DNA of 32,000 bases from Bifidobacterium longum subsp. longum JCM 1217 (GTDB taxonomy: Bacteria; Actinomycetota; Actinomycetes; Actinomycetales; Bifidobacteriaceae): positions 1,230,001 to 1,262,000 of the forward strand of contig NC_015067.1 in NCBI RefSeq assembly GCF_000196555.1, read 5' to 3'. The translations under genes and the position numbers were made by a program. The notes beneath the pieces are model-generated. The model was given only the letters and a program-made list of their open reading frames with translations, was not told the origin of the DNA and ran no database searches. Of this stretch, positions 926 to 20,195 are shown piece after piece. Position 1 is the first letter of the stretch. Every line of letters starts with the position of its first letter.

Positions 926-1711
926 TTATTTGGTCATGAGGGCGTGTTCGCTTCGGTAGGAGCGGCCCTCGAATCTGATGAGCCGTCCGTGGTGGACGGT
1001 GCGGTCGATGAGGGCGGCGGCCATGTTCTTGTCGCCGAGCACGCGTCCCCATCCGCTGAATTCGATGTTGGTGGTGTAGATGATGCTCCTTGTCTCGTAG
1101 GAATCGGAAATGATCTGGAAGAGGAGCCTGCTGCCCTCCTCGTCTATGGGCAGGTAGCCGAACTCGTCGATGATGAGAAGTCGGGCCTTGCCGATGCTCG
1201 CGAGTTCCCGGTCGAGCCGGTTCTCCTGCTGGGCGCGGCGCAGACGCATGAGCAGTCCGGTCGCGGTGAAGAAGCGCACCGGGACGCCCCGCTCGCAGGC
1301 GAGCCGTCCGATCGCGATGGCCAGGTGGCTCTTGCCGGTGCCGACGGGCCCGTAGAGCACGAGGTCCTCGCATCCGGCGACGAAGTCGAGGTTCTCGAGC
1401 TGCGCGCGCCCCCAGTCGGCGGGCATCTTCAGGTTGGTCCAGTCATAGCCGTCGAGGGTCTTGTCGGCGGGGAAGCCGGCCTGTTTGAGCAGGCGCAGGC
1501 GTTTGGATCGCTCGCGCGAGTCGAGTTCGGCCGTGAACCATCGTTCGATGAAGTCGAGCTGGTTGGGCGTGGCCTCGGCGAGCGTGCCCGCGAGCACGCT
1601 GCGTGTCAGGGTCAGGCTGCGGCTCATCTTCAGGATCCTCTCGCTCTTCTCGGTCGTGGACGCGCGACGGCGGCGGGTCTCCGGGATCACCGGATCGGGT
1701 CTGACGCTCAC
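926..1711 (-). CDS. istB: IS21-family helper ATPase IstB
   Basis: Walker A GPVGTGKSHLAIA, Walker B LLIIDEFGY, and an IstB-like C-terminus (IYTTNIEFSGWGRVLGD...DRTVHHG). GTG start at 1711 overlaps the istA stop (GTGA). The upstream part of ORF 926..1921 is read-through. Confidence 0.85.
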   Translation of the reverse strand: MSVRPDPVIPETRRRRASTTEKSERILKMSRSLTLTRSVLAGTLAEATPNQLDFIERWFTAELDSRERSKRLRLLKQAGFPADKTLDGYDWTNLKMPADWGRAQLENLDFVAGCEDLVLYGPVGTGKSHLAIAIGRLACERGVPVRFFTATGLLMRLRRAQQENRLDRELASIGKARLLIIDEFGYLPIDEEGSRLLFQIISDSYETRSIIYTTNIEFSGWGRVLGDKNMAAALIDRTVHHGRLIRFEGRSYRSEHALMTK

Positions 1712-3210
1712 CGTTCTTCCCCTCCGTCGTCCGTGCCGGTGATGAACCGGTCGTAGCCGCTCAGGTCGGGCTCCTCGATCCCGCCGGGGTATTCCCACTC
1801 GCCGTCGCGCATGCGCAACGCGATAGGGGTGAGCGAGTCCGCGTGCAGGCCCATGTCCCTGTTCGAGCGCAGGATCTCGCCGCACGCCTGCATCGCGGGA
1901 TCGAACCCGGCCGCCCGGCACGCGTCCCCGATCGCTTTGAGGCTCTCCCTCAACGTCTTTTCGTCCATGGAATCAAGCCACGCGCGTATATCGTCGGGCA
2001 CGTCCGGGCGGATCGAGCTTTCCCGCCACGCGCGGGGTTTGACCGCGAGCCGGGGAAGCACGAGCGCGGGATCCTCCACATTGCGCGACCGTCCGTACTG
2101 TCTGGGATACTCCGCGAAGAGCTCGCCGGTGGCGGGCGAGGTGAGCGTGACCGTGTCCCACCGGATCGCGGCCAATACCCTGGAACGCGCCGAATCGGGG
2201 CCGGCGAGGTACCGGTTCGAGTCGATGTCGACCAGCCCGTACTTGTCGGCCGTCCGGCTTTCCCAGCGAACCGGGTCGAACGCCGTGGACGGCAACGGCA
2301 TCAACGCGGCCCTCTCCTCGTCGAACACCTCGGCCACGGGCACGTCCAGCAACCTCGGGCAATACGAGTCCCTGGCGAGCCCGTCGCACCGCTCCAGCAG
2401 GAGACGGCTCAACTGCCCATACGATTCCGCGCGCATGGGCGGCACCATGAGATTGCGCCGCAAAAACCCGACCGCGTTCTCCACGCTGCCCTTCTCGTTG
2501 CCCGAATACGGGTTGCAGAACCGGACCTCGAGCCGGTAATGCGCCACGAACGCGGAGAACACCCCGGTCAACGCGACCTCGCCCTTCGCGTTGCGCCGGC
2601 CGGCACCGGTCGCGTTGTCCATCACGATCACGGGAGGAACACCCCCGATATGCTCGAACACGAGCATCAGGCCATGGCACAGACACTCCGCGTTCTCGCC
2701 CGGCAACGCCACGCACAACCGCATGTTCGAATACGGCAACGAGACCACCAGGCAATGCACGTCCGCCATCTCGCCAGCGATCCGGGCCCGGGCCACGCCG
2801 AAATCGACCTGCATGCTGCCCGCCGCCCACTCGAGCCGCACGTACCCCTCGCGATCCGGCACGCCGCGGTTCGCCTCGCGCCACCGGTGCACGTAACGCA
2901 TCGTGGTCGAATACTCGCCGTCGTAATCCGTCTCCGCCAGCAGACGGTCGTGCACGCGCCTGATCGTGTGCCGCTGCTTCCTGGGCAGCAGACGATCGGC
3001 CTCCAGCCACTCGTCCACCAGATGCGCGTACGGGTCGATCTTCGACCCGTACCTGCGATCCGCCTTCGGCTTGGGCGAGCAATCCTCCATATCCGCGTAC
3101 TTCGCGACCGTCCCGCGATCCACGTGAAGACGCCGCGCTATCTGCGCGCGCGACATTCCCTGCCGGTCGAGTCTCCTGATATCTTGCACAATGGGCATCG
3201 GTATCGCCAT
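1708..3210 (-). CDS. istA: IS21-family transposase IstA
   Basis: N-terminal HTH (MSRAQIARRLHVDRGTVAKY) and a DDE integrase-core region (SMQVDFG...VVMDNATGAG...). Start taken at the ATG at 3210, preceded by GGAAGGAAAGGAAC. ~500 aa, typical IstA size. Confidence 0.85.
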   Translation of the reverse strand: MAIPMPIVQDIRRLDRQGMSRAQIARRLHVDRGTVAKYADMEDCSPKPKADRRYGSKIDPYAHLVDEWLEADRLLPRKQRHTIRRVHDRLLAETDYDGEYSTTMRYVHRWREANRGVPDREGYVRLEWAAGSMQVDFGVARARIAGEMADVHCLVVSLPYSNMRLCVALPGENAECLCHGLMLVFEHIGGVPPVIVMDNATGAGRRNAKGEVALTGVFSAFVAHYRLEVRFCNPYSGNEKGSVENAVGFLRRNLMVPPMRAESYGQLSRLLLERCDGLARDSYCPRLLDVPVAEVFDEERAALMPLPSTAFDPVRWESRTADKYGLVDIDSNRYLAGPDSARSRVLAAIRWDTVTLTSPATGELFAEYPRQYGRSRNVEDPALVLPRLAVKPRAWRESSIRPDVPDDIRAWLDSMDEKTLRESLKAIGDACRAAGFDPAMQACGEILRSNRDMGLHADSLTPIALRMRDGEWEYPGGIEEPDLSGYDRFITGTDDGGEER

Positions 3211-3411
3211 GTTCCTTTCCTTCCCGAGCGCCGGCCGGCGGCAACCGGCCGAATCAAAACCGATTGGCAACTCGGGAATATACAGGCGGCGGCACCGATG
3301 CCTATCACATCACCGGGAAACGATGACGACACCGGGGAAAACCATCAGCCCACACTACGGAAAAACACTGCCGAACCTGTCGAACAAACATTGAAGCAAA
3401 ACAACGAGGAC

Positions 3412-4161
3412 GTGATCGAACGGAAACGGCGGCGGGGACGCCTGCGCGCCTACGGACGGCAGGTGTGGCGGGAGGCGAAGACCGCGGGCGCGCCCCGGGT
3501 CAACCGGTACATGATGCTCGTCACCGTGGGGGGACGCCCGGAAAGCCCCGTGCTCGCCGCCGAGACCCTGAAGCCCCTGATCGACGCGGGCACGGACGAG
3601 GCCCTGTGGCCGGACGACGACCCGTACCATCGCGTGATGACCTGCTATCTGAGGGATCCCCGCCCCCTGCCGGGCGGCCGGGCGGAACTGTTCATCTGGG
3701 TGATCCCATTGGCCCCCGGCGTCGACCCGCTGGCCCGGCTGCTGGCCCGCGTGCCCGGCTCCAAAGCGACCCTGGCGCGCGCCACGTTCGGCGAGGATTC
3801 GTGGCTGACCAGCAACATGCGCATGACGGCCCGGGAGCGCAAGGCGATGCAGACGCGTGCCATGCGCGCCTGCCAAGGCGCATGGCACGCGAGCCCGGGC
3901 GCCTGCTGCGGCGTCGTCTGCCAGGTCCGCTACCCGGATCCGAGACGCGAATACAAGGGCGATCCGGACAACGTGGCGGAGACGGCGACCGCCATGTGGG
4001 GCGTCGGCGTCATGCAGGGCCTCCTGCCCGCCAGCCCGGGCGTCTTCTGCTTCATGCTCGCCGACGGGGAATCCGAACCGAAGCACCATGATCTCGACAT
4101 GCTCGCGTTCACCGTGCCGTCCGACGCGGACTGGCCCCGCCTGCTGCTCGGGGACGCATAG
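3412..4161 (+). CDS. Hypothetical protein with two tandem RusA-like (Holliday-junction resolvase fold) halves. Start is uncertain: GTG 3412 or ATG 3511. The 5' end may be affected by the IS21 insertion.
   Basis: High GC3 frame. The second half carries a RusA-like acidic motif and context (VRYPDPRREYKGDPDNVAETATAMWGVGVMQGLLP). The first half has the RusA-like C-terminal pattern (LKPLIDAGTDEALWPDDDPYHRV...GGRAELFIWVIP) but lacks the D-x-D-N motif. Assignment is by eye only. Confidence 0.4.
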   Translation: MIERKRRRGRLRAYGRQVWREAKTAGAPRVNRYMMLVTVGGRPESPVLAAETLKPLIDAGTDEALWPDDDPYHRVMTCYLRDPRPLPGGRAELFIWVIPLAPGVDPLARLLARVPGSKATLARATFGEDSWLTSNMRMTARERKAMQTRAMRACQGAWHASPGACCGVVCQVRYPDPRREYKGDPDNVAETATAMWGVGVMQGLLPASPGVFCFMLADGESEPKHHDLDMLAFTVPSDADWPRLLLGDA

Positions 4162-4200
4162 GAGCATGGCGAAAACGCAACCGACCGGAGGGAGGCCGTC

Positions 4201-5250
4201 ATGGTCATGGACAGGCATAACAGGAGCCACAAGCCGAAGGGCACGCCCGACGGCGGCCGATACGAGGCGAAAAACGGTTCGGCCGGGTCGGATGACGTGG
4301 CCGAACCGTCGGGGGCGGACCCGTCGGCCCGCATCATCGGCTCGCACGAACCCCTCACCGGGGATGACATCGAGTACATTCGCACCGTCTCCGGCCCCGA
4401 CACGATCGGCCTGATGGCCGCCCACCGGCCCGAGGTGGACGCGTGCCTCGCGTCGAATCCGAACCTCACGGAGGATGACGTGGACAGGCTCGTATTCCGG
4501 CAGAAGTCGAATTCGGCACGCGCGGACACGGTGTCCGGCGCCTGCATGCGCCCCGTCATGTCGGACGCGTTCCGCGACCGCTGCGTGGGCTGGATGCGCG
4601 ACCAGACCCCGCGTATCAGGCACGCGGCCATCGACGCGATAGGCTCCAACCCGCACGCGGCTCCCGAACTCGTCAAGGAAAGCCTGTGGGCCGACCCGTG
4701 CATGCGGCAGGCCGTCCGCGTGGCCGCGAACCCGGCGGCGGACGATTCGACGCTCGCCCTCGCCGTCAACATCCACCCGCGCGACAGCAGCGTGTTCGCG
4801 GGCAAGGTGCTCCGCCATCCGCATTGCGGCCCCGACGCGCTGCACGCCATCGACGAGAGGACCACGGACCCGTGGATCCGAGAACGCGTGTGGAGCCATC
4901 CGCGCATGGACATGGCGACGCTCGCCGACTGGAAGAGCCACGTGTCCTACGACCGGTACGAGGCCGCGTTCGGCGCGGCCATGAGCCCGAAGCTCGACTT
5001 CGCGCTCGCCTCAAGCCTTGCATCCTTGAACAATCCGGATGTGGACAGGCGGCTCGCCTACAATCCGAGGACGCCGTCGGAGCTGCTGGGCTCGTTCGCC
5101 GGACGCGGCGACCGTCAGACCGACCTGAACCTGGCCGGCAATCCGAGCCTGCCGTTGGCGAGCCTCAAGGTGCTGCGCGACCGGTATCCGGACGATTCCG
5201 ACATGCATGCCATACTGGCCGGCAATCCGGTCCTGAGCGGCCTGCGCTGA
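4201..5250 (+). CDS. LRV (leucine-rich repeat variant)/HEAT-like repeat protein with a conserved N-terminal MVMDRxNRSHxPKGTPDGGRYE module
   Basis: RBS GGAGGGAGG upstream of the ATG. High GC3. Repeated NP-containing ~25-30 aa units (LASNPNLTEDDV, VAANPAADDSTLALAV, LAYNPRTPSELL, LAGNPSLPLASL, LAGNPVLSGL). Confidence 0.7.
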   Translation: MVMDRHNRSHKPKGTPDGGRYEAKNGSAGSDDVAEPSGADPSARIIGSHEPLTGDDIEYIRTVSGPDTIGLMAAHRPEVDACLASNPNLTEDDVDRLVFRQKSNSARADTVSGACMRPVMSDAFRDRCVGWMRDQTPRIRHAAIDAIGSNPHAAPELVKESLWADPCMRQAVRVAANPAADDSTLALAVNIHPRDSSVFAGKVLRHPHCGPDALHAIDERTTDPWIRERVWSHPRMDMATLADWKSHVSYDRYEAAFGAAMSPKLDFALASSLASLNNPDVDRRLAYNPRTPSELLGSFAGRGDRQTDLNLAGNPSLPLASLKVLRDRYPDDSDMHAILAGNPVLSGLR

Positions 5251-5269
5251 AAAGGAAAGGAAAACCATC

Positions 5270-5728
5270 ATGGTCATGGACAGGAACAACAGGAGCCACA
5301 GGCCGAAGGGAACGCCCGACGGCGGCCGGTACGAGCCGAAGAACGCCGCCGGCGTATCGGGGGATGTGGCCGCGCCCCGGAACACGCCGGACCCGCATGA
5401 TCTGGCCGCGATCTTCGACCGGCCGGACCTGGCCCGCCAAATCGACTTCACGCTCGCGGACGGCAGCCATGTCAACGGGTACGCGATGGACTGCGAACGC
5501 CTCCCCCGCGAGCATGTGCCCGCCGGGTGGCATGTGTACGCGATCATGGAAAGCGAATCCGACGACGACGATCTGGACATCATGACCATCAGGGAGAACA
5601 CGTGGGTGAATCATCGCATGGATTTCGCCACCGACCGGGACCTGACCGGCGTCATCGACGATCCCTCGTTGGAGAACGTGGCGGACTGGGGGTTCACCGA
5701 CCGGACGCTTGCCGACGATCTCGCCTGA
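5270..5728 (+). CDS. Hypothetical acidic protein sharing the N-terminal MVMDRxNRSHxPKGTPDGGRYE module with the preceding gene
   Basis: RBS AAAGGAAAGGAAAA upstream. The first ~75 nt are ~90% identical to 4201-4275 by hand alignment, then unrelated. The C-terminal part (LPREHVPAGWHVYAIMESESDDDDLDIMTIRENTWVNHRMDF) is reminiscent of small domains in conjugative-element polyvalent proteins; this is unverified. Confidence 0.65.
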   Translation: MVMDRNNRSHRPKGTPDGGRYEPKNAAGVSGDVAAPRNTPDPHDLAAIFDRPDLARQIDFTLADGSHVNGYAMDCERLPREHVPAGWHVYAIMESESDDDDLDIMTIRENTWVNHRMDFATDRDLTGVIDDPSLENVADWGFTDRTLADDLA

Positions 5729-5790
5729 TGTCAACGACCGCAATGACGAGCATTGCGGCTTGTCCCTGTCCGGTAGTGCCAATGGAAACC

Positions 5791-5830
5791 GCGACGGCCC
5801 CGCATTCCGGAAGGGAGGCGGGGCCGTCGC
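5791..5830. terminator. Bidirectional stem-loop between convergent genes
   Basis: Perfect 13-bp stem GCGACGGCCCCGC (5791-5803) / GCGGGGCCGTCGC (5818-5830) with a 14-nt loop. It lies between the 3' ends of 5270..5728 (+) and 5864..6154 (-). Confidence 0.6.
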
Positions 5831-5863
5831 GCATGCATTGCGGCCGTGAAGACGCGCCCCGGA

Positions 5864-6154
5864 CTATCCGACCTCATCCCCCATGATCATGTCGAAGAAC
5901 GCGTCCGGATCGTCCACGACCCACACGTGGAAGCCGCGTGTTTCGAGTTTCGCGAACATGGCGCTCTGGCTGGCCCTGGGCTTTCCTCCCGGCCGTTTCA
6001 GTTCCACGAGATACAGCCTGCCGCCGGGCATGAACAGGAGACGGTCGGGCACGCCCAACCGTCCGGGCGACACCCATTTCAGGGACAGTCCCCCATGCCG
6101 TCTCGCCAGCATGTTGAACCGGCGTTCCACCGTGTTCTCCCTCACCGCCGCCAT
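5864..6154 (-). CDS. VRR-NUC domain (PD-(D/E)xK) nuclease
   Basis: Motifs GVPDRLLF ... LYLVELKRPGGKPRASQSAMFAKLETRGFHVWVV match the VRR-NUC pattern G-x-PD ... E-x-K ... Q. Strong RBS GGAGGGGG upstream of the ATG at 6154. Confidence 0.8.
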   Translation of the reverse strand: MAAVRENTVERRFNMLARRHGGLSLKWVSPGRLGVPDRLLFMPGGRLYLVELKRPGGKPRASQSAMFAKLETRGFHVWVVDDPDAFFDMIMGDEVG

Positions 6155-6561
6155 CCGAACCCCCTCCGCGCGTCCGGCCCGTCCGGCTCGACGGGGAGCA
6201 TGCGGATCAGGCGCGCCCGTTCCGGGAAGCCGGCCGCCTCCAGGACGCGCGCATCCAAGTCCGTGCCGAGCACGCGCAGCGTCTCCGCGTCCAGATCGGT
6301 CCGGGTCGCGAGCACGCGGCGCACGCGCGCATCCCGGTCATGGGCGAGCGTGGACATCAGCGCCGCGTCCAGGCCGGGCCGGGCGGCCACGCGGGCGCGC
6401 ACGCAGGCCGCCGGATCATCCGCCAGACGTTCCACGACACGGTCGGGCAGCGGCATGCCCGCCGCATGCGCGCGCACCACCGGATTCGGGTCGAACGCGG
6501 CCCGACGCGCGTCCCCCGACCCGTCCAGCAGGGCCAGGACCCTGTCATGCCAATCATCCAT
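6142..6561 (-). CDS. LRV/HEAT-like repeat protein, translationally coupled to the downstream VRR-NUC gene
   Basis: Repeats of the type DPNPVVRAHAA / DDPAACVRARVAARPGLDAALMSTLAHDRDARVRRVLA. Start chosen at the ATG at 6561 (GGGG RBS) rather than 6600. Its 3' end overlaps the VRR-NUC start by 13 nt. Confidence 0.6.
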   Translation of the reverse strand: MDDWHDRVLALLDGSGDARRAAFDPNPVVRAHAAGMPLPDRVVERLADDPAACVRARVAARPGLDAALMSTLAHDRDARVRRVLATRTDLDAETLRVLGTDLDARVLEAAGFPERARLIRMLPVEPDGPDARRGFGWRR

Positions 6562-6656
6562 GCCCCATCGTATGCGTTGCGCGGTTGCGCATAGACGCAT
6601 TCCGACGCGTGCGGGGCCGGTTCCAGGCCCGCACGACGATTCGGAAAAGGAGAACC

Positions 6657-9068
6657 ATGGACAAACGAATCAGCAGGACCCTGGCCGCGACGCTCGCCGC
6701 GGCCACCCTGGCCGGCGGGACGGCCGCACCCGTCTGGGCCGACCAGCCGACGGCGGGCGGGGCGGCGACCCGCACCGGACAGCGCGCGCCCATCGCCGGC
6801 CTGGCCGGCGTGACGGCCCGGTGGAGGGACGCGCAAGGCGGCACCGGCCCCGTCACGGGATTCGATCCGGCCAACGGGAGGGGAGGCGACGTGCCCGCCG
6901 GCACGACCGCGGTCACCCTTGACGGCCTGCCCGACGGATGGACCCAATCCGTCTCCAAGGACGATCCGCTGACCGTCACCCTCGCCGCGCCCGATCAGGC
7001 CCAGTCCCGCACCTACACGTTCCGCGCCGTGTCCGCCGCCGACCGGTTCAGGGAATCATTGAAGAAGGCCGAAACGATCCGCGACGACAGGGACGCGACG
7101 GACGCGTACGACCGGGCGAGCCTCGACGCGCTCGGCAAGGCGATCGGCGACGCGGGGAAACTGGACGCGGACACCGCCGGCGACCAGATGCTCGCCAAGG
7201 CCGCGGACGGCCTCGACCAGGCGGTCGCGGGCCTGCGCGTCGTCAACTGGACGTTCCACGGCCAGACCCTCGCCTACGACGTCGCGTCGAAGACGTGGAC
7301 GCCCGCCACCCCGTTGGGCCAGGCGCCCGGCACGGACGAGAAGATCACGGGCGGCAGCACGTCCAACCGGATCGAAGTGTCGACCACGGCCTCCGCACCC
7401 GACGTCAGGAACACGCTGGCCGGCGTCACCGAAACGGATCAGGTCCTGACCGCGTCCCACGGCGGCGAATCGTTCCGCATCCCCATACGCATCGTCCAGG
7501 GCACGGAGATCACGTTGAAGGACGGGACCCGTTTCACCGGTTCGGAGAACGGCTCCGAATGGACCGTCACCGACACCGGCCACCGGCTCGACAAGGACAA
7601 CATGCCCGACACGGACAAGGTGGAACTGTCCGACGGATCGACGCTCCCCGTCGCCTGGGGCAAGGCCACGCTCGACCCGTCGGGCGCGGCCGGCCCCGTA
7701 TGGACCATGAGCGGGAAGGCCACGCGCACGCTCGACAACGGGCAGACGCTCACGGTGAACCTGACCGCCAGCCGCGCCTGGGACGCGAAACTCAGCATCG
7801 GCGTGGAGCATCGGACCGCCGACGGGAACACGACCCTCATCCCCGGCGTCGACCTGGAGGACGCGACCGCCGCGGACACCCCGTTGGACGTGACCCTGCC
7901 CACGCTCCCCTACGCCGCGGCCGGCGACCAGTACGCGCCCGCCGTGACCGGCGGCGACGACGCGACGGTCACGTTGAAACCCACCGGGCTCGGCGATGAC
8001 GGGATGCGCGTGTTCACCGGCACCGTCAAGGCGACCAGGACGGACGGCACCATCGTGACCCGCAGGTTCACGATCCGCCAGCCGTTCGACAAGCCGTCCA
8101 GGACCGTCGGCGCGCCGGACGCCGCACTGGACGGGCTGCTCGTCAACGGCCAGCCCATCCAAGGGTGGGATCCCGACATCCTCGAATACACGATCACCGC
8201 GGGCGAGGACGACAAGGTCACGGTCAGTCCCAGGGCGAAGGCCGGGCAGACGGTGAAGGCGTCCGACACGACCCTGACCGCGCACAGCACCGTCCAGCAT
8301 TGGACGGTGACCGGGCCGGACGGCGGGAACCGTACGTACACGGTCACGCTCGTCCGCGACCACAGGACCCCCACCGCGGACGAGGCGTTCAAACCCTCCG
8401 ATCCGAAGGACACGGGCGGCACCCGGGAGGCTCCCGGCCCGGACACGGCCACGCTGAAAAGCGTCGGCTGGACGAAGGACGGCACGTACCACGCGGAGAA
8501 GGGCGACGAATACCTGATCCCGGAGGGCGGCTCGTTCGCCTACGAATCGTACCTGGGCCAGATCGTGAAGATCACGCCGGGCCGCGACCACGGCATGACG
8601 TGGAAATACCGGATCGGGGTGCTCGCCCCCGACGGCGTCACCTACCGGACGCGTACCGTCACGGTCACCTACCTGACGGAGGCGACCCACAGGGCGGGCC
8701 TGACCGGGTTGAGTGTCGACGGGCGCGACGTGGACGGGTTCTCGCCGGACAGGCTCGAATACACGGTCGGGGTCGCCAACCCGGAACGCTACGTGGTCAC
8801 CCCGTCGTGGGACAAGCAGACGGGCATGAGCGTCACCAAGCATGTGGACGGCGCGGACACGACGCTCACCGTGACCAGCGCCGACGGGCTGACGTCCGTC
8901 GTCTACAGGGTGCACGTCGAATACGATGCGGGGCTCGCCGCCACCGGCGCGGGCGTGACGGGCGTGATCATGATCGCCGTCGCCGCCGTCCTGGCGGCCG
9001 CCGGCACATGGTTCGCGTCCCGGCATAAGCCGCATGATCCGGACGGGGACACGGACGCGACCATGTGA
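6657..9068 (+). CDS. Cell-wall-anchored surface protein with cadherin-like beta-sandwich repeats and an LAXTG-type sorting signal
   Basis: RBS AAAGGAGAACC. Signal peptide MDKRISRTLAATLAAATLAGGTAAPVWA/DQ. Two repeats of the type L(D/T)GL.V.G..(I/V).G(W/F).PD.LEYT(I/V) ... Y.V.(L/V). C-terminus is LAATG + hydrophobic helix + RHK tail. The upstream part of ORF 5883..9068 is rejected because it overlaps minus-strand genes. Confidence 0.8.
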   Translation: MDKRISRTLAATLAAATLAGGTAAPVWADQPTAGGAATRTGQRAPIAGLAGVTARWRDAQGGTGPVTGFDPANGRGGDVPAGTTAVTLDGLPDGWTQSVSKDDPLTVTLAAPDQAQSRTYTFRAVSAADRFRESLKKAETIRDDRDATDAYDRASLDALGKAIGDAGKLDADTAGDQMLAKAADGLDQAVAGLRVVNWTFHGQTLAYDVASKTWTPATPLGQAPGTDEKITGGSTSNRIEVSTTASAPDVRNTLAGVTETDQVLTASHGGESFRIPIRIVQGTEITLKDGTRFTGSENGSEWTVTDTGHRLDKDNMPDTDKVELSDGSTLPVAWGKATLDPSGAAGPVWTMSGKATRTLDNGQTLTVNLTASRAWDAKLSIGVEHRTADGNTTLIPGVDLEDATAADTPLDVTLPTLPYAAAGDQYAPAVTGGDDATVTLKPTGLGDDGMRVFTGTVKATRTDGTIVTRRFTIRQPFDKPSRTVGAPDAALDGLLVNGQPIQGWDPDILEYTITAGEDDKVTVSPRAKAGQTVKASDTTLTAHSTVQHWTVTGPDGGNRTYTVTLVRDHRTPTADEAFKPSDPKDTGGTREAPGPDTATLKSVGWTKDGTYHAEKGDEYLIPEGGSFAYESYLGQIVKITPGRDHGMTWKYRIGVLAPDGVTYRTRTVTVTYLTEATHRAGLTGLSVDGRDVDGFSPDRLEYTVGVANPERYVVTPSWDKQTGMSVTKHVDGADTTLTVTSADGLTSVVYRVHVEYDAGLAATGAGVTGVIMIAVAAVLAAAGTWFASRHKPHDPDGDTDATM

Positions 9069-9081
9069 TCCGGATACCCAT

Positions 9082-9143
9082 ACGCGCGGGAAGGCCGGAT
9101 GCGGGGGGCGCGTGTTCTCCCCGCATCCGGCCTTCCCGCGCGT
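9082..9143 (+). terminator. Long perfect hairpin immediately after the surface-protein gene
   Basis: 25-bp arms ACGCGCGGGAAGGCCGGATGCGGGG (9082-9106) / CCCCGCATCCGGCCTTCCCGCGCGT (9119-9143) with a 12-nt loop. No T-tract. Confidence 0.6.
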
Positions 9144-9365
9144 ATGTTCACACTGTTGGTCAAACAGGGCGGTATCCGTTATGAGGTGACACCGGGTGGT
9201 CAGAAGGTATACGATCCGCATGAGATCGACCGGTACATGGCCGAACGTCAAGGCAAGCCGATCCCCGAGGGGAAGCTCGTGTTCTATGTGCGTGACAGTG
9301 AGGGGAACATCGTTCGCATGAACACGCAGGTGGAACGGTTGACGGTCGCATACGGCAAGCCGGTG
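9144..9365 (+). pseudogene. Decayed fragment resembling the N-terminus of a MerR-HTH + small serine recombinase (IS607/resolvase-like)
   Basis: The pattern GIRYEVTPGGQKVYDPHEIDRYMAER ... KLVFYVRDSEGNIVRMNTQVERLTVAYGKP resembles the '...TPGGHRRY...' HTH tail followed by a 'YARVSSxxQ' catalytic-serine segment. The first HTH helix and everything after ~75 aa are missing. This stretch is locally lower in GC than the rest of the island. Confidence 0.35.
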
Positions 9366-9516
9366 AGGGGCCGGCATCCTTCCACTCCCAAGGACTACCA
9401 GGAGTGGCGACGGCGACTATCCGGAATAAAAGGAAGCAGACAACCACCGTCACACTACGGGCCAGCGTTGCCATGCAGTTATGGCAGGAACCACAACTAC
9501 CTCATCCCGAATAACC

Positions 9517-9798
9517 CTAGGCGGCCGGGTCGAGGGCCGCGGCCCGCCTGGTGGCGAGCATGCCCGCACGGCACATGATCGACGCCTGGGCGGGCGTCAG
9601 GCCGCCGCCGAACCGTCCCATGAGACGGAACGCGTCCTCCATTAGAATCCGGTCCGTTCCGGGCAGTGTTTCCAGGCATCTGGCGGCGCGGGCGAACACT
9701 TCCGCATCATGCTCCAGCATGGCGTACGCGTCCATCATGCGCGTCCCGCCCTCACGGCTGATGCTCTCCGCCGCGCGATCCCAATCCATTCCGGTCAT
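9517..9798 (-). CDS. Small hypothetical protein (93 aa) downstream of the Replic_Relax-like gene
   Basis: High GC3 ORF. GGGGG RBS-like stretch upstream of the ATG at 9798. Co-directional with and 36 nt from the upstream gene. No recognisable motif. Confidence 0.45.
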   Translation of the reverse strand: MTGMDWDRAAESISREGGTRMMDAYAMLEHDAEVFARAARCLETLPGTDRILMEDAFRLMGRFGGGLTPAQASIMCRAGMLATRRAAALDPAA

Positions 9799-9834
9799 GC
9801 CCCCGTATATGCGTTCCGGCCACCCGCCTGTCGC

Positions 9835-10821
9835 TCAGCCATGCCAATGCCCGCGCATGCGCTCCGGCAGCCGCCATGAGGCGGCGTTCGGCAGGCCGAA
9901 CACGCGGCCGAGCCTGTCCATGTCATGTCCCGTCCACCCGTCCAGGGGGACGGGAATGCCGGGTGAGGGCGTCCACCCGTCCGTCATGAAACCGCCGGCC
10001 ATGACGGACGCCGCGTCGCCCGCATGCTGGCGGGAGCGTGCCGCGCACAAGCCGTCCAACCGTTCCAGGATCCCCGTGTTCCCGTCGCCGCGGCCGGCCG
10101 ACAGCCACAGGACATGCGTGTTCCGGCAGGCCGGATGGTCGAGCACCCTGTCCCACCGGCGGAACTTCGTCTCCAATGACTGTCCGGTGGACGCGGTCAG
10201 TTCCACGCATACGAGCAGGCCCTCGCCGATGAGCGCCAGATCGGGGCCGCCATGGCCCATGATCGGATCATCGCAGATCCGGTCGAACCGGCACCACGCC
10301 TCCCCCGCGGTCAGCCACCCGTCGCGCCGGGCGCGGATGGCGAGCCCCGTGCAGATCAGGTTGTGCCGGTCGTACTGGCGTTGCCCGCGCAAAGGGCCCG
10401 GCCCGATGTCCGCGATCTCGACGGGCGTGAGGCCCAGCCGGCGCAGTTCCGGGTCGATCGCGTGGTGGACGGGCAGGCGGACGGCCATGAAGCCCGCGCT
10501 TTTCGGCCCCCATCCGCCGCGCCCGTTCACGTTGATGGGGAAGCCCAGGTCGATGAGGCGCATGCCGGCGAGCATCATCCACAGCGTGGACCGCGGGTCG
10601 GCGGGCAGCCGCGGGTCGAGCTCGTGGAGTTGGCTTGTCTCGCAGGTCCTGTGCGAGCGGATGAGCGCGAGCGCCGCCCCCGTGACGGGGGCATGCCGTT
10701 CCAGCCATGCGAGCGCCCTCTCCCGGTCGGGGAGCCATGCGGGAGGGTCGGCCACGCGGCTGTCCCACCAGTTGAGGGCCGATCCCGCCGACCACCATGA
10801 TTCGTCGAAAGCGTCGAACAT
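9835..10821 (-). CDS. Replication-relaxation (Replic_Relax)-like winged-helix protein; tentative
   Basis: N-terminal wHTH-like segment (AALALIRSHRTCETSQLHELD...LWMMLAGMRLIDL), a central H-x-L segment (YDRHNLICTGLAIRA), and a PD-(D/E)xK-like GPDLALIGEGLLVCVELT. By eye only. Confidence 0.4.
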   Translation of the reverse strand: MFDAFDESWWSAGSALNWWDSRVADPPAWLPDRERALAWLERHAPVTGAALALIRSHRTCETSQLHELDPRLPADPRSTLWMMLAGMRLIDLGFPINVNGRGGWGPKSAGFMAVRLPVHHAIDPELRRLGLTPVEIADIGPGPLRGQRQYDRHNLICTGLAIRARRDGWLTAGEAWCRFDRICDDPIMGHGGPDLALIGEGLLVCVELTASTGQSLETKFRRWDRVLDHPACRNTHVLWLSAGRGDGNTGILERLDGLCAARSRQHAGDAASVMAGGFMTDGWTPSPGIPVPLDGWTGHDMDRLGRVFGLPNAASWRLPERMRGHWHG

Positions 10822-10931
10822 GACGGCCGGCTATGCGGGTCGTCCGCGTACGGCGTGTCGCCTTGCGCCGGCCGGGATGCGGGGTGGTGGCGAAACGCAT
10901 GGTATGTGTCCCGGGACGCATACGCGCCCGC

Positions 10932-11969
10932 ATGTCAGACGATAACCTCGCATGCACTCCCGCGCAATGGGAGCGGATCATCAGCCGATACGCCGACCCG
11001 GCCCGGTCGAACTCGCCGGCGGGCCGGGTCGCCGCCCTGCTGCGCGACGACGCGCGCGCCTCCGACCTGGTGCGCGAATGGGTCGAGGACCAGGCCATGC
11101 GATGCATGGCGAAGGGGCAGACGGTCACGCCCACGCTGCTGACCATGATCTGCAAACGGTGCAGCAAGGAGGCGATCCTCCACAGGGAGCTGGGCGTGAG
11201 CGTCAAACTGCTGCGCGCCGGCGCCGCCTATGAGAAACGTCTCGCCGAATACCGTAACGATCATGCGTCCGCCCACCCCTCCCGGCCGGTCAGGGAACGC
11301 CTGTGGGACGAGGCGGTGGACGCGCATATCCATGGTCAGATGGAGCGCGGCGTGAGCAGCATGGTGTTCCTGCCCTACCATGACGGGCGCAACTCGCATC
11401 CGGGCTCGTCGAACCTGCTCGCATGCGGCGGCCTGCCGGAATGGGAGGCGCTGTTCGGATCGAAGCGGCGTCGTTTCGCCCCGTTGGAGGATGTGGACGA
11501 GGATCATGATCCGGCGCTCATGGACCATACGGGCGGCATGCCGTTCGAGGTGACCGCGGAATGGCTCGAACGGCATGGGATCACGCCCGCCATGCTGAAC
11601 CGTCTGACCGACACGGATCTGGCCGTATTGGGCGTGGACGTCAGGTCCGCGCGCCTCGAATCCGCGGGCGGCGTCCTGGACGGGGTGGCGGGCCGCCTCG
11701 ACCTCATATTGGACGATCCGCGGGCGAGCCAGGCCCTGGCGGCCGGCCGGCCGATGCTGGGGGCCGTGGAGATCCTCCACTCGCTGGGCATGGATGTGGG
11801 CATGATCCGGGCGGGCATGCGGCTCGGCCGCTGGTCGCGGGCCGGGGACGTGCACGATCCGGGCATGCTGCGCGCCGCATGGGACCGGATCCCGGGCCGT
11901 GGGGGCACGTACGACGAGTATCTGCGCGCCGTGTCCGACATTCTCGACAAGGCCCACGCCCTCGCATAG
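10932..11969 (+). CDS. Hypothetical protein (345 aa). Start is uncertain (ATG 10932 or 10899).
   Basis: Long high-GC3 ORF, divergent from 9835..10821 and first of three co-directional genes. No recognisable domain. Confidence 0.55.
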   Translation: MSDDNLACTPAQWERIISRYADPARSNSPAGRVAALLRDDARASDLVREWVEDQAMRCMAKGQTVTPTLLTMICKRCSKEAILHRELGVSVKLLRAGAAYEKRLAEYRNDHASAHPSRPVRERLWDEAVDAHIHGQMERGVSSMVFLPYHDGRNSHPGSSNLLACGGLPEWEALFGSKRRRFAPLEDVDEDHDPALMDHTGGMPFEVTAEWLERHGITPAMLNRLTDTDLAVLGVDVRSARLESAGGVLDGVAGRLDLILDDPRASQALAAGRPMLGAVEILHSLGMDVGMIRAGMRLGRWSRAGDVHDPGMLRAAWDRIPGRGGTYDEYLRAVSDILDKAHALA

Positions 11970-12012
11970 CGAGGCGATGAACGTTGTTTTCCCGAGGGAA
12001 AGGAGACCGGTC

Positions 12013-12525
12013 ATGACCGTTGACGCGCATGGGAGAAGCCACAGGCCGTCCGGACTGCCCCAAGGGTATGCGGGCACGTATGACGGGGGCACGGGCGCGT
12101 CCGGGGGCATGGACGTGACGCCGCCCTCCTCCTATTACGACGGGCGCATGGGCGAGGCGGAACGCGCCGACCGGCCGACCGGCACGTGCCAGCGTCCACC
12201 CTCCGAAACCTCGCATGCAGGACAATTGCGCCGTCTTCTGGGCGACGATCCGGTCGAGGGAAGCGTTTCGAGCGTCGCCGGATCGTACCCGGGCCCGAAC
12301 GCGCGCCTGTACGCTGACTTCGTGCGTCATCCGCGCCGCCGCACCTACACGCTGGAGGGCGAGACCATGACCCGCTCCCAGGCCCGCGACTACGCGCGCG
12401 GCATGCTCGTCGAATCGGCGCGCAACGATGCCGGGGCGTGGGGCGACGGGTATGATCCGGACGCCATGGCCGAACAGGCAGGCGACTGGTTCGACAGGAC
12501 ATATCCCATGCCGAAACGACGTTGA
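12013..12525 (+). CDS. Hypothetical protein with an N-terminal RSHRPSGLPQG module related to those at 4201 and 5270
   Basis: RBS GGGAAAGGAGACC upstream of the ATG at 12013. N-terminus is MTVDAHGRSHRPSGLPQGYAGTYDGG. Confidence 0.6.
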   Translation: MTVDAHGRSHRPSGLPQGYAGTYDGGTGASGGMDVTPPSSYYDGRMGEAERADRPTGTCQRPPSETSHAGQLRRLLGDDPVEGSVSSVAGSYPGPNARLYADFVRHPRRRTYTLEGETMTRSQARDYARGMLVESARNDAGAWGDGYDPDAMAEQAGDWFDRTYPMPKRR

Positions 12526-12565
12526 CGGAGATCCATGACGGAGGGAAACGGTATCATGGGCGACC

Positions 12566-13519
12566 GTGACCGGATTCATACTGATCTTTGCCCTACTGTT
12601 CCTTCTCGGCATGATCGCCCTGCCGTTCATCCCCGTCATCGCGATCATCCTCCAGCGTCGGCATAACAGGAAACGCGCGCAAGGAGGCGTGTTCGTCTCG
12701 CATCGGAGCGAATACGCGAACATGGAGCCTTCGCCCGCGGACGTGGCGCACGTCGCCGCACGATACGGGATAATGCCCGATGCGCGTGGATGGATGGGAT
12801 GGCGGTGCGTGACGCATGATGCGGGCGGCATGGGGGACAACATCCGCGGGGTCGCCGCGACCGTGGATCTGAACGGCTTGGCGACATATGGGCTTGTGCG
12901 CGGCGTGCCCGGCTCGGGTCTGGAAGACTCCTCGTTCACCGCGGATCAGATAGGCGCGGGCATATGGGGGGAAAGCCTGCTGGCCCGCGCGATCATGGCC
13001 GGCCGGCCGCGAGTCTTGTCATGGTGGAGCCTGTACGGTTTCGACGAATGCCTGCGCCTGTCGGACAGTGACATCGACTGCGTGCTGGTCGGGATTCGTC
13101 CCGACGGCAGGCCTGTCGCATGGTTCGTCGACGCGAAACGGTACAAGGGCGGTTCGGACACGAGTTACGTGAATGTGGATGCGTGGCATCTGGCGCGCGT
13201 CAGCCGGGCGAGACGCGCGTTCGTGCTTGACTCCGCGGGCCGCGCGTGGACATCGATGAGCCCGAACATGTGGGAGCAGCGGGAACGGTGGCAGGGTCTG
13301 CTGGCCCGATACGGCGTCGTATCGTATTGGGTGGTGTGCGTGACCCCGCCGGGCGGGCATGGGACCCCCGATATGACCACTGCCGTATGGCCGGGTGGCG
13401 TGACCTGCATGGACATACCATCGCTTCGCGCGATGATCGATTCCGTGTGTGTTCCGGACATGTTCGCCGCGATCCCGCCCGGACTGGTCTCCCTGCTTGA
13501 TTCGCATATCAAATATTAA
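12566..13519 (+). CDS. Membrane-anchored NERD (nuclease-related) domain protein
   Basis: GTG start. N-terminal TM helix FILIFALLFLLGMIALPFIPVIAIIL followed by the basic stretch QRRHNRKR. NERD-like motifs: WGESLLARAI ... DSDIDCVLVG ... VAWFVDAKRYKGG ... SPNMWEQRERW. Confidence 0.6.
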   Translation: MTGFILIFALLFLLGMIALPFIPVIAIILQRRHNRKRAQGGVFVSHRSEYANMEPSPADVAHVAARYGIMPDARGWMGWRCVTHDAGGMGDNIRGVAATVDLNGLATYGLVRGVPGSGLEDSSFTADQIGAGIWGESLLARAIMAGRPRVLSWWSLYGFDECLRLSDSDIDCVLVGIRPDGRPVAWFVDAKRYKGGSDTSYVNVDAWHLARVSRARRAFVLDSAGRAWTSMSPNMWEQRERWQGLLARYGVVSYWVVCVTPPGGHGTPDMTTAVWPGGVTCMDIPSLRAMIDSVCVPDMFAAIPPGLVSLLDSHIKY

Positions 13520-14903
13520 CGCCCGCCGTCTCTCCTTCCAATGCGTCCATGACCGCCTCGTGCAGCATCATGCGGCCGGTCAATACGTCGAGCTTGCGAC
13601 GGTCCACGGTGTTCGACTCCAATAACCGGTGGACGCGCACCGTCCTTTTCTGCCCCTGACGGTGTAATCGGTCGCATGCCTGACGGTAGTCGTCGAACGA
13701 CCAGGGCAGGCTGGTCCACACGATCTCGTGTCCCCCGTCCTGGATGTTCAGCCCGTATTTCGCGGCCTGGGGGTGGGCGGCCAGGAGCGGGACGCGGCCG
13801 TTGCGCCATTCCTCCAGCACGCCTTGCTCATGCACCTCGCGCATGCCGGGGAAGCGTGCGCGCATGCGCTCCAATTCGTCGGTGAACTGGTAGAACACGA
13901 GCACCGGGCCGTCCGCCGCTGATATGATGTCCGCCAACGCGTCGAGCTTCACGTCGTCCACGTGCCGGATCGTCCCTTCCGGATCGTCCGCGTCCGGGTA
14001 CAGGCAGCCGCACGTCAGTTGGGCCAGCTTCGCGGTCAGGACGCCCGCGTTGGCGACGGTGACGGTCGTCCCGTCATCCAGGTCGGCGACCATCTGCCGA
14101 CGCAGCCGGTCGTACGTGTCCCGGGTCGGTTTCGGCATGTCGAGCCAATGGTCGGTCTCGATCAGGGACGGGAGTCCGGGCAGTTTGTCGCTTGCCTTCA
14201 TGGAGAGGCAGAACGGTTCGATGAGGTCGAGGATCTCCTGTTGGGCGCCGTCGCGGGGCGTGTAGTCGATGGGCTGCCGGCGGCCGCCCATGTCGATGTA
14301 CCGGGTGGGCGTGAACCAGCGTTCCCGGTAGCGGGTCATGGACCGTTCCAACGTTTCGGACCGGTCGATGACCGCGATTTCGCCCCACAGGTCCAATAGG
14401 TTTTTGGTGGCGGGCGTGCCGGTCAGTCCGAGCGCCCAACGGGCCTTCCTCGCATGACGGCGCAATACGAGCCCCCGGTTGGAGCGGGGCGTCTTGTAGC
14501 CGGACAGTTCGTCCACGACGAGGCCCGTCCACGGCCAGTCCCCCACCTTCCCGTCCAGCCATTTGAGGTTGTCCTGCCCGATGACGGTCACGTCCGCGCC
14601 GGCGTCCAGCGCCTGCGACCGTTGCCGCGGCGTGCCGACGGCGACCGCCCAGGTCAGGGAGTGCATGCCCTTCCAGCGTTCGAGCTCGTCGGGCCACGAG
14701 TTGCGGGCCACCAATGCGGGCGCTATGACGAGGAACCGGGCGTGCGGGTCGGCCGCGTGCATGATGTCCATGACGGCGATGCTGGTCAGCGTCTTGCCGA
14801 GCCCGGGTTCGAGGAACAGGCCGCATCCGCGGGACGGGGAGGCGAACGCCTTCAGGGCGAACCGGATGGCCTGTTTCTGGTAGTCGTGCAATGGGGTTTC
14901 CAT
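13509..14903 (-). CDS. SNF2-family (phage/ICE-type) DNA helicase/translocase
   Basis: Motif I LEPGLGKT, motif II VVDELSGYK, motif III LGLTGTPATKN, and C-terminal helicase motifs (LLAAHPQAAKYGLNIQDGG, CDRLHRQGQKRTV). Its 3' end overlaps the NERD gene by 11 bp in convergent orientation. Confidence 0.85.
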   Translation of the reverse strand: METPLHDYQKQAIRFALKAFASPSRGCGLFLEPGLGKTLTSIAVMDIMHAADPHARFLVIAPALVARNSWPDELERWKGMHSLTWAVAVGTPRQRSQALDAGADVTVIGQDNLKWLDGKVGDWPWTGLVVDELSGYKTPRSNRGLVLRRHARKARWALGLTGTPATKNLLDLWGEIAVIDRSETLERSMTRYRERWFTPTRYIDMGGRRQPIDYTPRDGAQQEILDLIEPFCLSMKASDKLPGLPSLIETDHWLDMPKPTRDTYDRLRRQMVADLDDGTTVTVANAGVLTAKLAQLTCGCLYPDADDPEGTIRHVDDVKLDALADIISAADGPVLVFYQFTDELERMRARFPGMREVHEQGVLEEWRNGRVPLLAAHPQAAKYGLNIQDGGHEIVWTSLPWSFDDYRQACDRLHRQGQKRTVRVHRLLESNTVDRRKLDVLTGRMMLHEAVMDALEGETAGVNI

Positions 14904-14976
14904 GCACGCGCGTATGCGTCAGAACCGGGACGCATATGACGGGTTCGGTGGAGGACGTCCGGAAAGGGGTTCCGTC

Positions 14977-15225
14977 ATGTTTGATTCCGTCGTGGCCTGG
15001 TATGGCATGCTGCCCGTCGGGGCGAGGGGCGCGGTCACGCTGGCCGTGGGCCTGCTCGTCGCCTGGATCGCGTTCAGGGTGGCGGTCAGGCTGGTGAAGG
15101 GCCTGGTCCGTTCGATCGTGGCCGCGGTGCTCGCGTTCCTGCTGGCGACCGTGCCGGGCAATCTCATCCTGCATGACGCGTACGCGCAGCTGAGGGAGAG
15201 GGCGTCCATGTCGGCCGTCATGTGA
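14977..15225 (+). CDS. Small two-helix membrane protein
   Basis: RBS GGAAAGGGG. Hydrophobic segments GAVTLAVGLLVAWIAFRVAV and IVAAVLAFLLATVPGNLIL. Confidence 0.5.
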   Translation: MFDSVVAWYGMLPVGARGAVTLAVGLLVAWIAFRVAVRLVKGLVRSIVAAVLAFLLATVPGNLILHDAYAQLRERASMSAVM

Positions 15226-15327
15226 CGTATGGCGTCCGTCCGCCTCCGGACGCGGGTCCCGGACGTCCTTTGCGGGAAACGCATATCCATGGGTGTCCAT
15301 CGTGTTTCCCGTCGTAAGGAGCCTGAC

Positions 15328-15522
15328 ATGGCCGACAAGCCGTTCGTCCCCGTCGAGCATCGTCTCGCGCTGACCGTCCCCGAGGCGGCGGCCCTGTGCG
15401 GCATTCCGGAGAAGGTGGTGCGCGCCGCGGTCGTGCACGGCGATCTGAGGCATTTCGAGAAGGGGTCCACGACCGCCAGGATCCGCAGGTCGGATCTGGA
15501 GGATTGGGTGGCCTTGCTGTGA
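15328..15522 (+). CDS. Excisionase/AlpA-type helix-turn-helix DNA-binding protein
   Basis: RBS AAGGAG. LTVPEAAALCGIPEKVVRAAVVHGDLR...ARIRRSDLEDWV matches the Xis-family HTH pattern. It is the last GC-rich gene before the compositional drop. Confidence 0.6.
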   Translation: MADKPFVPVEHRLALTVPEAAALCGIPEKVVRAAVVHGDLRHFEKGSTTARIRRSDLEDWVALL

Positions 15523-15671
15523 GTCCGACACGGATAGGCACACTTAGGCACACATGCCGTGTATGATGTTCTCCAGATGCGCGTGATTCCGCCATTCCGT
15601 GGTGCCGGCTGACTTAGTGTACGTTATGTCAGATTAGTTATCCTTGACAAGGATTCGGTCGCCTGTATCAA

Positions 15672-15926
15672 CTAGTCCACGCATACCAAGGCCGACAGCC
15701 AAAGGAGCACCGGAGCATACCAGGCCGACAGCCAAAGGAGCACCGGAGCGACCACCGCAATTGCAAGAATCGCCGTGCCTTTCAGCCAATCCTTGTCATC
15801 TCGTTTCCAGTGGAATGCTCGCCAAATGAACCATATCAGCATGGGAATCTCATACAGCGACAGCAATGGCAAACCGATGAAAACCAGGTCGAAGCCCGCG
15901 GCGCAGGCTCCATCGCATCCCATCAT
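15672..15926 (-). CDS. Small hydrophobic membrane protein containing an in-frame 33-bp tandem duplication
   Basis: 84-aa ORF, mostly hydrophobic. Repeated peptide APVLLWLSA(WY)/APVLLWLSA(LV). Confidence 0.4.
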   Translation of the reverse strand: MMGCDGACAAGFDLVFIGLPLLSLYEIPMLIWFIWRAFHWKRDDKDWLKGTAILAIAVVAPVLLWLSAWYAPVLLWLSALVCVD

Positions 15927-15949
15927 GAAGAAGTCCTCGCCGTTGTGTT

Positions 15950-16669: not shown

Positions 16670-16748
16670 TGAGATTCCACTCCCCTTTGTTCATGTCGAC
16701 TGCTTTGAATGGTCGTCAAACGATATGCGACTTGTTCCAACAATGATT

Positions 16749-16773
16749 ATGCCCAGTCGGGATGACTGGGCAT
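16749..16773 (-). terminator. Stem-loop downstream of rbpA
   Basis: 10-bp arms ATGCCCAGTC / GACTGGGCAT with a 5-nt loop, ~28 nt after the rbpA stop. Confidence 0.55.
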
Positions 16774-16800
16774 CAAGTTCACGTGTTGTTCAGTAGGAGA

Positions 16801-17148: not shown

Positions 17149-17263
17149 ATCGGCATCCTCCTTGAAAGATCTTTAACCCTACTAATTTACGCAACAGTTC
17201 GGACTTGGCCGCTATTCCAAGCTTCCGACGTCGGCTGACAAACTCCCATCAAACGGCCCCCCG

Positions 17264-19855: not shown

Positions 19856-19867
19856 TGCTGCTTTCCG

Positions 19868-20185: not shown

Positions 20186-20195
20186 GAAAGGCTCC

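Follow-up and report, generated by a model that had tools for sequence, protein, structure and literature searches.

A portable N-terminal leader on unrelated proteins of a Bifidobacterium longum conjugative element, a candidate element-specific address tag

This study revealed that a short N-terminal leader found on otherwise unrelated proteins of Bifidobacterium longum subsp. longum JCM 1217 is a portable module and not a local duplication. The stretch that was analyzed (hereafter, the window) comprises 32,000 nucleotides, positions 1230001-1262000 of NC_015067.1, the single contig of this 2.385-Mb genome (60% G+C). It contains the right-hand end of an integrative and conjugative element (ICE), and all genomic copies of the leader are located within this ICE. 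We propose that the leader serves as an element-specific address tag on a cohort of soluble accessory proteins, most plausibly for their transfer by a type IV secretion system (T4SS), a reading for which we consider the chances to be evenly divided. No described family and no paper was found for it, and the leader is probably an address label that has not been described before.

In the window, two adjacent genes starting at positions 4201 and 5270 share the leader. Their 5' ends are identical at 68 of 75 nucleotides (90.7%) and the first 25 residues of their proteins at 22 positions, in agreement with the first-pass annotation, which had also described an abrupt end of the similarity. This was confirmed: in the following three 75-nt blocks the identity drops to 31/75, 24/75 and 19/75, which is the background level, and BLASTP gave no meaningful match between the cargo parts of the two proteins. 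The 60 nt located 5' of the two genes are also unrelated (18/60 identical). The protein encoded at 12013-12525, which had been proposed as a third member, was found by reading its translation to carry the same core, R-S-H-R-P-x-G-L-P-x-G. The earlier assignment of LRV repeats to the 4201-5250 protein holds as well, its cargo matching Pfam family PF25591 (LRV_2) with 33.5 bits for a cut-off of 27 (E 4e-8). Proteins identical to those of the window ORFs (open reading frames) are present in many B. longum and B. infantis records, e.g. CP001095.1 and CP065209.1.

The number of carriers, previously given as three, proved to be too low. The genome was scanned with a six-frame regular expression and then with a hidden Markov model (HMM) of the leaders, which retrieved 12 ORFs at E values of 1e-17 to 1e-23, the next match being at E 0.17. 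Nine of the 12 lie to the left of the window. All of them are found between genome positions 1148446 and 1242525, inside the ICE, where they account for 12 of about 91 genes, and they include a further adjacent pair at genome positions 1209173 and 1209682. In all 12 copies, the leader begins at residue 1 of the ORF, directly after the start codon. A Shine-Dalgarno sequence is present 5-10 nt upstream of most of these ORFs and, together with in-frame conservation accompanied by synonymous variation at the invariant residues, it supports the start codons.

With regard to its architecture, the leader is bipartite and comprises about 37-40 residues. The first box is basic and rich in glycine and proline, with the consensus M-x-x-D-x-N-G-R-S-H-[RK]-P-x-G-x-P-x-G-(x-A)-G-x-[YF]-[DE]. 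It is followed, after about eight variable residues, by an acidic second box, which can be written as D-[LVI]-x-P or D-[DV]-[VIL]-x-P-P. Two subtypes are observed: G-T-P-[DE]-G-G-R-Y-E in 4/12 copies, including both adjacent genes of the window, and G-L-P-x-G-x-A-G-T-[FY]-[DE] in the other eight, including the copy at 12013. Gly, Pro, Asn, Arg and Asp are abundant in the leader as a whole. The net charge of box 1 ranges from 0 to +3, in addition to one or two histidines, while residues 25-45 are net negative in 10 of the 12 copies. The maximal Kyte-Doolittle mean over 19 residues does not exceed 1.06 in any of the 12 carriers, which therefore have no hydrophobic stretch and are soluble. A Sec or Tat signal was considered and is ruled out by the lack of a hydrophobic core in all 12. 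The leader is predicted to be intrinsically disordered. In the AlphaFold2 model of a 424-residue carrier, residues 1-37 have a predicted local distance difference test score (pLDDT) below 50 and the body one above 90 (mean 80), and residues 1-40 of the 152-residue protein encoded at 5270 also score below 50.

The conservation of the leader is exerted on the peptide, since codons vary synonymously, and DNA diverges across elements, while the residue pattern is kept. Among the invariant residues, which use 2-4 codons each, R8 is encoded by AGG, CGG, CGA or AGA, G14 by GGA or GGC, P16 by CCC, CCG or CCA, and G18 by GGG or GGC. There is, in addition, a marked codon preference: the rare arginine codon AGG occupies 22 of the 30 arginine codons at leader positions 5, 8 and 11 (e.g. 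window 4213-4233), compared with 5% genome-wide and 12% in ICE genes. Some unrelated neighbouring genes have nearly identical leader DNA (90-100%), namely the pair at 4201 and 5270 and that at genome positions 1207668 and 1209173. Judging from these sequences, this suggests gene conversion.

The distribution of the leader extends far beyond this genome and is not confined to local paralogues. The 12 leaders were combined into a profile, with which 1.84 billion representative proteins were searched; 146 clusters matched at E < 1e-3, 54 of them at E < 1e-10. Upon inspection, about 139 of the 146 were judged to be true and about seven to be false positives due to Gly/Pro repeats. The match begins at residue 1 in nearly all of the true clusters; the few others are apparently proteins with mis-called starts, plus one fusion protein. 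The latter (P0087, metagenomic, 685 aa) has the sole true internal leader, at residues 346-386, and in it the upstream gene seems to be fused to a homologue of the 12013 carrier. In 124 representatives, M1, D4 (99%), H10 (98%), G14 (100%) and P16 (99%) are near-invariant, as are, at later positions, a glycine (100%), the aromatic Y/F (99%), an aspartate (95%) and then L/V/I (96%). The named carriers belong to B. longum, B. infantis records, B. felsineum, B. myosotis and Bifidobacterium sp. SO1. Most other clusters are metagenomic, and one cluster has 1,109 members.

The cargo is highly diverse. After residue 45, at least 44 families are mutually unrelated at a BLASTP threshold of 1e-5, so that the view of the leader as a portable N-terminal module on divergent cargo is borne out. 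Several cargo families are found with either subtype. Among the cargo of the clusters, Pfam recognizes Zeta_toxin/AAA_33 (two members), pentapeptide repeats (one), LPD28 and LRV_2, and one copy in the B. longum genome itself is attached to a Fic/DOC domain. The cargo of the 5270 gene matches PF18843 (LPD28) with 23 bits, below the cut-off of 27 (E 6e-5); a relative that is 64% identical (P0206) has a precomputed PF18843 annotation and lacks any leader. The AlphaFold2 model of this 152-residue protein (pLDDT 53) is too poor for a fold search. The cargo of the 12013 gene forms a family of seven members in the protein-cluster search. In three B. infantis-type records (L006, L008 and L011, locus 9769-9981), the LRV carrier has shrunk to a 70-residue stump located 5' of an intact 152-residue carrier. 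The first-pass annotation had not recognized the leader as a described signal; likewise, no model in Pfam, NCBIfam or PHROG covers it, and no paper that describes it was found.

The element that bears the leader was delimited by gene calling and Pfam searches and spans about 100 kb, from genome position 1145101 to about 1245500. It encodes a coupling protein (T4CP) of the FtsK_SpoIIIE type (1093 aa, genome 1145101-1148382), whose best sequence match in the PDB is 6o1w, a 'DNA translocase coupling protein'. Also encoded are a VirB4-like ATPase of the AAA_10 family (1366 aa, genome 1165434-1169534, minus strand) and a cell-wall hydrolase with phage-lysozyme and CHAP domains, as well as a PD-(D/E)XK nuclease, four orphan DNA methylases, GmrSD/HNH nucleases and several insertion sequence (IS) elements.

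The leader co-occurs with this coupling protein. Among 234 species-representative Bifidobacteriaceae genomes, exactly seven have a full-length relative of the T4CP, and these same seven have 6-12 leader ORFs each; the other 227 have neither a full-length T4CP nor solid leader matches. Given that these genomes are related to one another, this co-occurrence is to be read as a pattern and not as a statistic. The long leader described above is found in two of the 234 genomes, that of B. longum (12 copies) and a second one (G059, nine copies), in which all copies lie within 80 kb of a T4CP gene whose product is 94% identical. The five further genomes have T4CP relatives at 36-39% identity, and their elements bear a short leader, M-x(2-5)-R-K-P-K-G-[SA]-P-x-x-x-G-G-Q-[FY]-D ... 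D-L-P-x-L, on 6-9 ORFs per genome. A search of the family for the short leader matched exactly these five genomes. By its sequence, the short leader is clearly a related form of the long one. Neither the long nor the short leader was found outside the family in 400 genomes sampled at order level and 400 at phylum level. A degenerate DNA pattern of the long leader gave just seven single, out-of-frame chance matches in 185,579 species genomes.

The 424-residue basic carrier (genome 1148446-1149720, plus strand) illustrates how the leader changes from element to element. Its gene divergently adjoins the T4CP gene here and in every related contig that was read. When 23 homologues are aligned, their bodies prove to be well conserved, whereas the leader drifts stepwise through the forms D-R-N-G-R-S-H-R-P-S-G-L-P-Q-G-Y-A-G-T-F-D, G-M-S-H-K-P-K-G-T-P-D-G-G-Q-Y-E, E-W-N-E-N-D-H-P-R-K-G-K-G...G-G-Q-F and S-Q-P-R-K-P-A-G...G-G-Q-Y-D. 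The H-P-R-K-G...G-G-Q-F form resembles an "HPR...G.F" motif that is presumably common in proteins of phages and plasmids; the literature search yielded no description of such a motif. The remaining tagged ORFs of each element use the variant of that element, and, as far as their sequences can tell, these variants are divergent forms of one core motif. That the variant follows the element and not the cargo would be expected if the label were read by a receptor that the element encodes, and it argues against reading by the host machinery. The 424-residue protein itself is a candidate core DNA-processing or adaptor protein. Although its AlphaFold2 model is confident, Foldseek found no PDB relative of its body (best E 0.38), and we make no claim that it is a hidden relaxase, since its fold has no such relative.

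In the mechanism that we favour, the tag would be read by a receptor encoded by the element, the best candidate being the FtsK/TcpA-like coupling protein of this Gram-positive-type T4SS. Proteins bearing the tag would then be brought to the mating channel and passed with the DNA into the recipient, where they could act early in establishment, anti-restriction or host manipulation. Candidates for such early-acting cargo are LPD28, LRV repeats, Fic, zeta-toxin-like kinases and pentapeptide DNA mimics. Both the identity of the receptor and the export into recipients are steps that we infer. All 12 copies are found within an ICE that bears the T4CP, the VirB4-like ATPase and the CHAP hydrolase. 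Conjugative T4SSs of Gram-negative systems move ParB, SSB, PsiB and at least 16 other plasmid proteins (PMC8406263, PMC11288057), and solo domains of the LPD28 type located near T4SS genes have been proposed as early invasion factors (PMC5512222); a tag that acts as a T4SS address matches both. In its boldest form, this proposal would make the leader the first signal to be defined for translocation by a conjugative T4SS of Gram-positive bacteria (here, actinobacterial), N-terminal, read by an FtsK/TcpA-like protein, and carried by at least 44 rapidly reshuffled effector families (Fic, zeta-toxin-like kinases, DNA mimics, LPD domains) that are injected ahead of or with the DNA. We rate this as somewhat short of an even chance.

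Several points weigh against delivery by the T4SS. The evidence for a link of the tag to the T4CP and to export is contextual, namely its occurrence solely within a family of T4SS-bearing ICEs and a variant that tracks the element, and a co-occurrence with the T4CP is equally expected for any other core gene of the element. No recognizable relaxase, the canonical substrate of a T4SS, bears the tag, and the fold of the tagged T4CP neighbour has no known relative. The presence of two subtypes (four and eight copies) in one element is not explained by a single receptor. The preference for AGG codons in the leader hints at an added role at the nucleotide level or at recent gene conversion. Finally, to our knowledge, known T4SS signals are C-terminal or internal and not N-terminal.

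The leader genes also have an upstream motif in common. CGCATAG (or CTATGCG), counted within 60 nt upstream of genes, occurs 16-52 nt upstream of 8/12 leader genes compared with 12/79 other ICE genes (Fisher p = 4e-4). Two of the eight sites are in the window, where both overlap the stop codon of the preceding gene, and six are upstream of leader genes at genome 1148-1212 kb. The motif is enriched 2.5-4 times in the ICE and shares a TATGC core with an iteron array at the start of the window. Given this shared core and the enrichment at leader genes, the latter may form one regulon.

This motif is relevant to one of the other explanations that have to be weighed, in which the 5' coding region acts at the mRNA or translation level for common control of the cohort, possibly as an unstructured purine-rich initiation region, as a rare-codon ramp, or as the target of an antisense RNA or an RNA-binding regulator. 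The regulon suggested by CGCATAG, the excess of AGG codons and the pairs with almost identical leader DNA between unrelated flanks would all fit such a role. Nevertheless, divergent copies keep the amino acids and change the codons, with CGG, CGA, CGT and AGA at R8 and three codons at P16, the DNA drifts across elements while the G-x-P...G-G-Q-[FY]...D-L-P pattern is kept, and the reading frame and the residue-1 position are invariant, which makes expression control quite improbable. A more serious competitor, although still an unlikely one, is a docking peptide for an intracellular hub encoded by the element, with no export involved. Being disordered and having 7-9 near-invariant positions, the tag resembles a short linear motif, and a variant that tracks the element fits any element-encoded receptor. 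As hub candidates, a replication or relaxosome complex, a chaperone or adaptor, and the beta-clamp-like protein of the ICE can be named. The last (genome 1157793-1158884, plus strand), which could be a hub for element proteins, matches the C-terminal domain of the DNA polymerase III beta clamp with 25 bits, just under the Pfam cut-off, and the element also encodes the PD-(D/E)XK nuclease and helicases. However, the motif is unlike the clamp-binding QL[SD]LF type, Fic, zeta-like kinase, DNA-mimic and LRV cargo is hard to square with one replisome-type hub, and the partner protein is hypothetical. The idea of a clamp-binding or SSB-tail mimic was set aside, as the motif does not appear to fit.

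The remaining explanations seem weaker. An N-terminal degron or protease processing site would limit the cohort to a short time window, and the disordered tag with its conserved acidic and proline boundary D-[LVI]-x-P could be a site of cleavage or recognition; one related metagenomic element even has a Peptidase_M50B gene near the T4CP gene. A degron for a host protease should track the host, yet elements within Bifidobacterium differ in their variant, and no protease gene is conserved beside the tagged genes in the loci that were read, so that we give this explanation little credence. A phage-type capsid-targeting leader, which packs proteins into the virion for injection, follows the same logic, being likewise short, N-terminal and attached to unrelated proteins that probably act early. 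With T4SS markers in the element, no phage structural family identified by PHROGs among ten window proteins and no capsid genes in Pfam searches of the ICE, which show conjugation markers instead, a capsid-targeting role is very improbable. In addition, the degenerate DNA pattern was found in only 1 of 2.9 million IMG/VR contigs, and this contig is a misfiled 187-kb Bifidobacterium stretch with the same ICE. Lastly, adjacent genes that share the leader, at 4201/5270 and at genome 1209173/1209682, are what a functionless remnant of local duplication among paralogues would leave behind. This has next to no probability in view of 12 copies on unrelated cargo, of the clusters and cargo families counted above, and of near-invariant positions in a leader that also occurs in B. 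felsineum, B. myosotis and B. sp. SO1; simple paralogy is refuted by this distribution and conservation.

Terminal address signals on mobile-element proteins are a known kind of signal, of which this tag would be a form confined, in the genomes searched, to elements of Bifidobacteriaceae. A close likeness to the tag read as a T4SS address is offered by the VirB/VirD4-type signals of Agrobacterium VirE2/VirF, of the F/R388 relaxases (TSA/TSB) and of the pED208 maintenance proteins, which are short, unstructured and charged and are present on unrelated proteins of conjugative elements. These signals are read by the coupling protein, and their substrates act in the recipient (PMC8406263). Like those substrates, tagged proteins belong to elements that encode a T4SS and a coupling protein (7/7 versus 0/227 genomes). 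The VirB/VirD4-type signals are, however, C-terminal, or an internal TS domain in relaxases, whereas the tag starts at residue 1 in all 12 genomic copies and in almost every true cluster. As to structure and charge, these signals are unstructured and net positive; the tag is predicted to be disordered (pLDDT < 50) and combines a box 1 of charge 0 to +3 with a following segment that is mostly net negative. Unlike these signals, it is bipartite and Gly/Pro-rich with an invariant histidine and an aromatic residue. The system itself is also different: the T4SS is of the Gram-positive, actinobacterial kind, and its coupling protein is FtsK/TcpA-like.

Three further systems are comparable in part. 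The capsid-targeting sequence of phage T4, found on IPI-III and Alt, is an N-terminal leader common to unrelated proteins, which accompany the DNA and are the first to act in the new host. It shares with the tag its shortness, its N-terminal position and its unrelated carriers. It works in the prohead, where it is cut by the prohead protease, whereas the element of the tag has a conjugation apparatus and no phage structural genes were found in it. In the type VII secretion system (T7SS), an ATPase of the FtsK/SpoIIIE family, EccC/EssC, recognizes a short peptide signal on the substrates. The T4CP of the ICE belongs to the same ATPase family. The T7SS signals are C-terminal and located on helical WXG/LXG proteins, in contrast to the N-terminal, disordered tag, whose locus has the VirB4-like and CHAP genes typical of conjugation. 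Polyvalent proteins (Iyer et al. 2017, PMC5512222) resemble the tagged cohort in their repertoire, LPD28 together with domains that target nucleic acids or the host; their delivery with invading DNA has been proposed, and solo LPD domains adjoin T4SS genes. They fuse many domains in one giant chain, whereas here separate small proteins each have their own copy of the tag. By analogy, the tagged cohort may be likened to a disaggregated polyvalent protein.

The features of the window are listed in Table 1.

Table 1 Leader genes, upstream sites and ICE end in the window (window positions)
Feature	Position	Strand	Remarks
Right-hand ICE end	3391..15522	.	Gene calls and Pfam; remainder of the ICE at genome 1145101-1233000
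CGCATAG site	4155..4161	+	46 nt upstream of carrier 1; candidate shared operator or promoter element
Leader, carrier 1, codons 1-45	4201..4335	+	GTPDGGRYE subtype; leader-HMM E 2e-19; Shine-Dalgarno GGAGGGAGG 5 nt upstream
Carrier gene 1	4201..5250	+	Leader and LRV-repeat cargo, 349 aa; same start in public gene calls
Leader, carrier 2, codons 1-45	5270..5404	+	GTPDGGRYE subtype; leader-HMM E 2e-18
Carrier gene 2	5270..5728	+	Leader and acidic cargo, 152 aa; weak LPD28 match
CGCATAG site	11963..11969	+	50 nt upstream of carrier 3
Leader, carrier 3, codons 1-45	12013..12147	+	GLPQGYAGTYD subtype; leader-HMM E 2e-20; Shine-Dalgarno GAAAGGAG upstream
Carrier gene 3	12013..12525	+	Leader and 170-aa cargo without family match in Pfam, NCBIfam or PHROG

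The ICE end comprises a 256-aa gene, carriers 1 and 2, a VRR-NUC and LRV pair, an 803-aa protein, carrier 3, a SNF2 helicase and an Xis-like HTH_17 gene, which marks the right end of the ICE at about genome position 1245500; housekeeping genes resume at about window position 15950. In a B. longum record (CP049767.1, locus 8122-20253), this module, from the 256-aa gene to HTH_17 with three leader genes, abuts housekeeping genes directly, and the remaining ~88 kb of the ICE are missing at this site. The module of CP049767.1 may be a remnant or separately mobile. An element of the IS21 family (window 926-3270, minus strand; IstB 926-1921, IstA 1708-3270) separates the iteron array from the 256-aa gene, and a long ORF on the plus strand (1843-4161) is an antisense shadow of this element. 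Elsewhere in the ICE, the VirB4-like ATPase shows weak matches to the DnaB intein and PI-SceI at residues 455-526 and 845-925, and a 1063-aa protein (L005:10620-13811, plus strand) matches LAGLIDADG and Hom_end; on the basis of these matches, both proteins probably hold inteins. NCBIfam added nothing for ten large ICE proteins.

According to a 2025 review, nearly all known functions of Gram-positive T4SSs are DNA transfer. Whether these systems also translocate effectors is a long-standing open question (PMC12857230), which the tag makes testable: it is a concrete candidate signal of 40 residues with 7-9 near-invariant positions to mutate. Candidate substrates are already at hand, namely the 12 carriers of this genome and, in total, about 139 clusters. 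Should it be a docking or regulatory tag instead, it would still define a co-ordinated protein cohort of an opaque 100-kb element. If it is indeed an export signal, it would provide a handle for protein delivery between bifidobacteria, point to new anti-defence and establishment factors among almost wholly unannotated cargo, and delimit the "conjutome" of a mobile-element family that is a major one among bifidobacteria of the infant gut.

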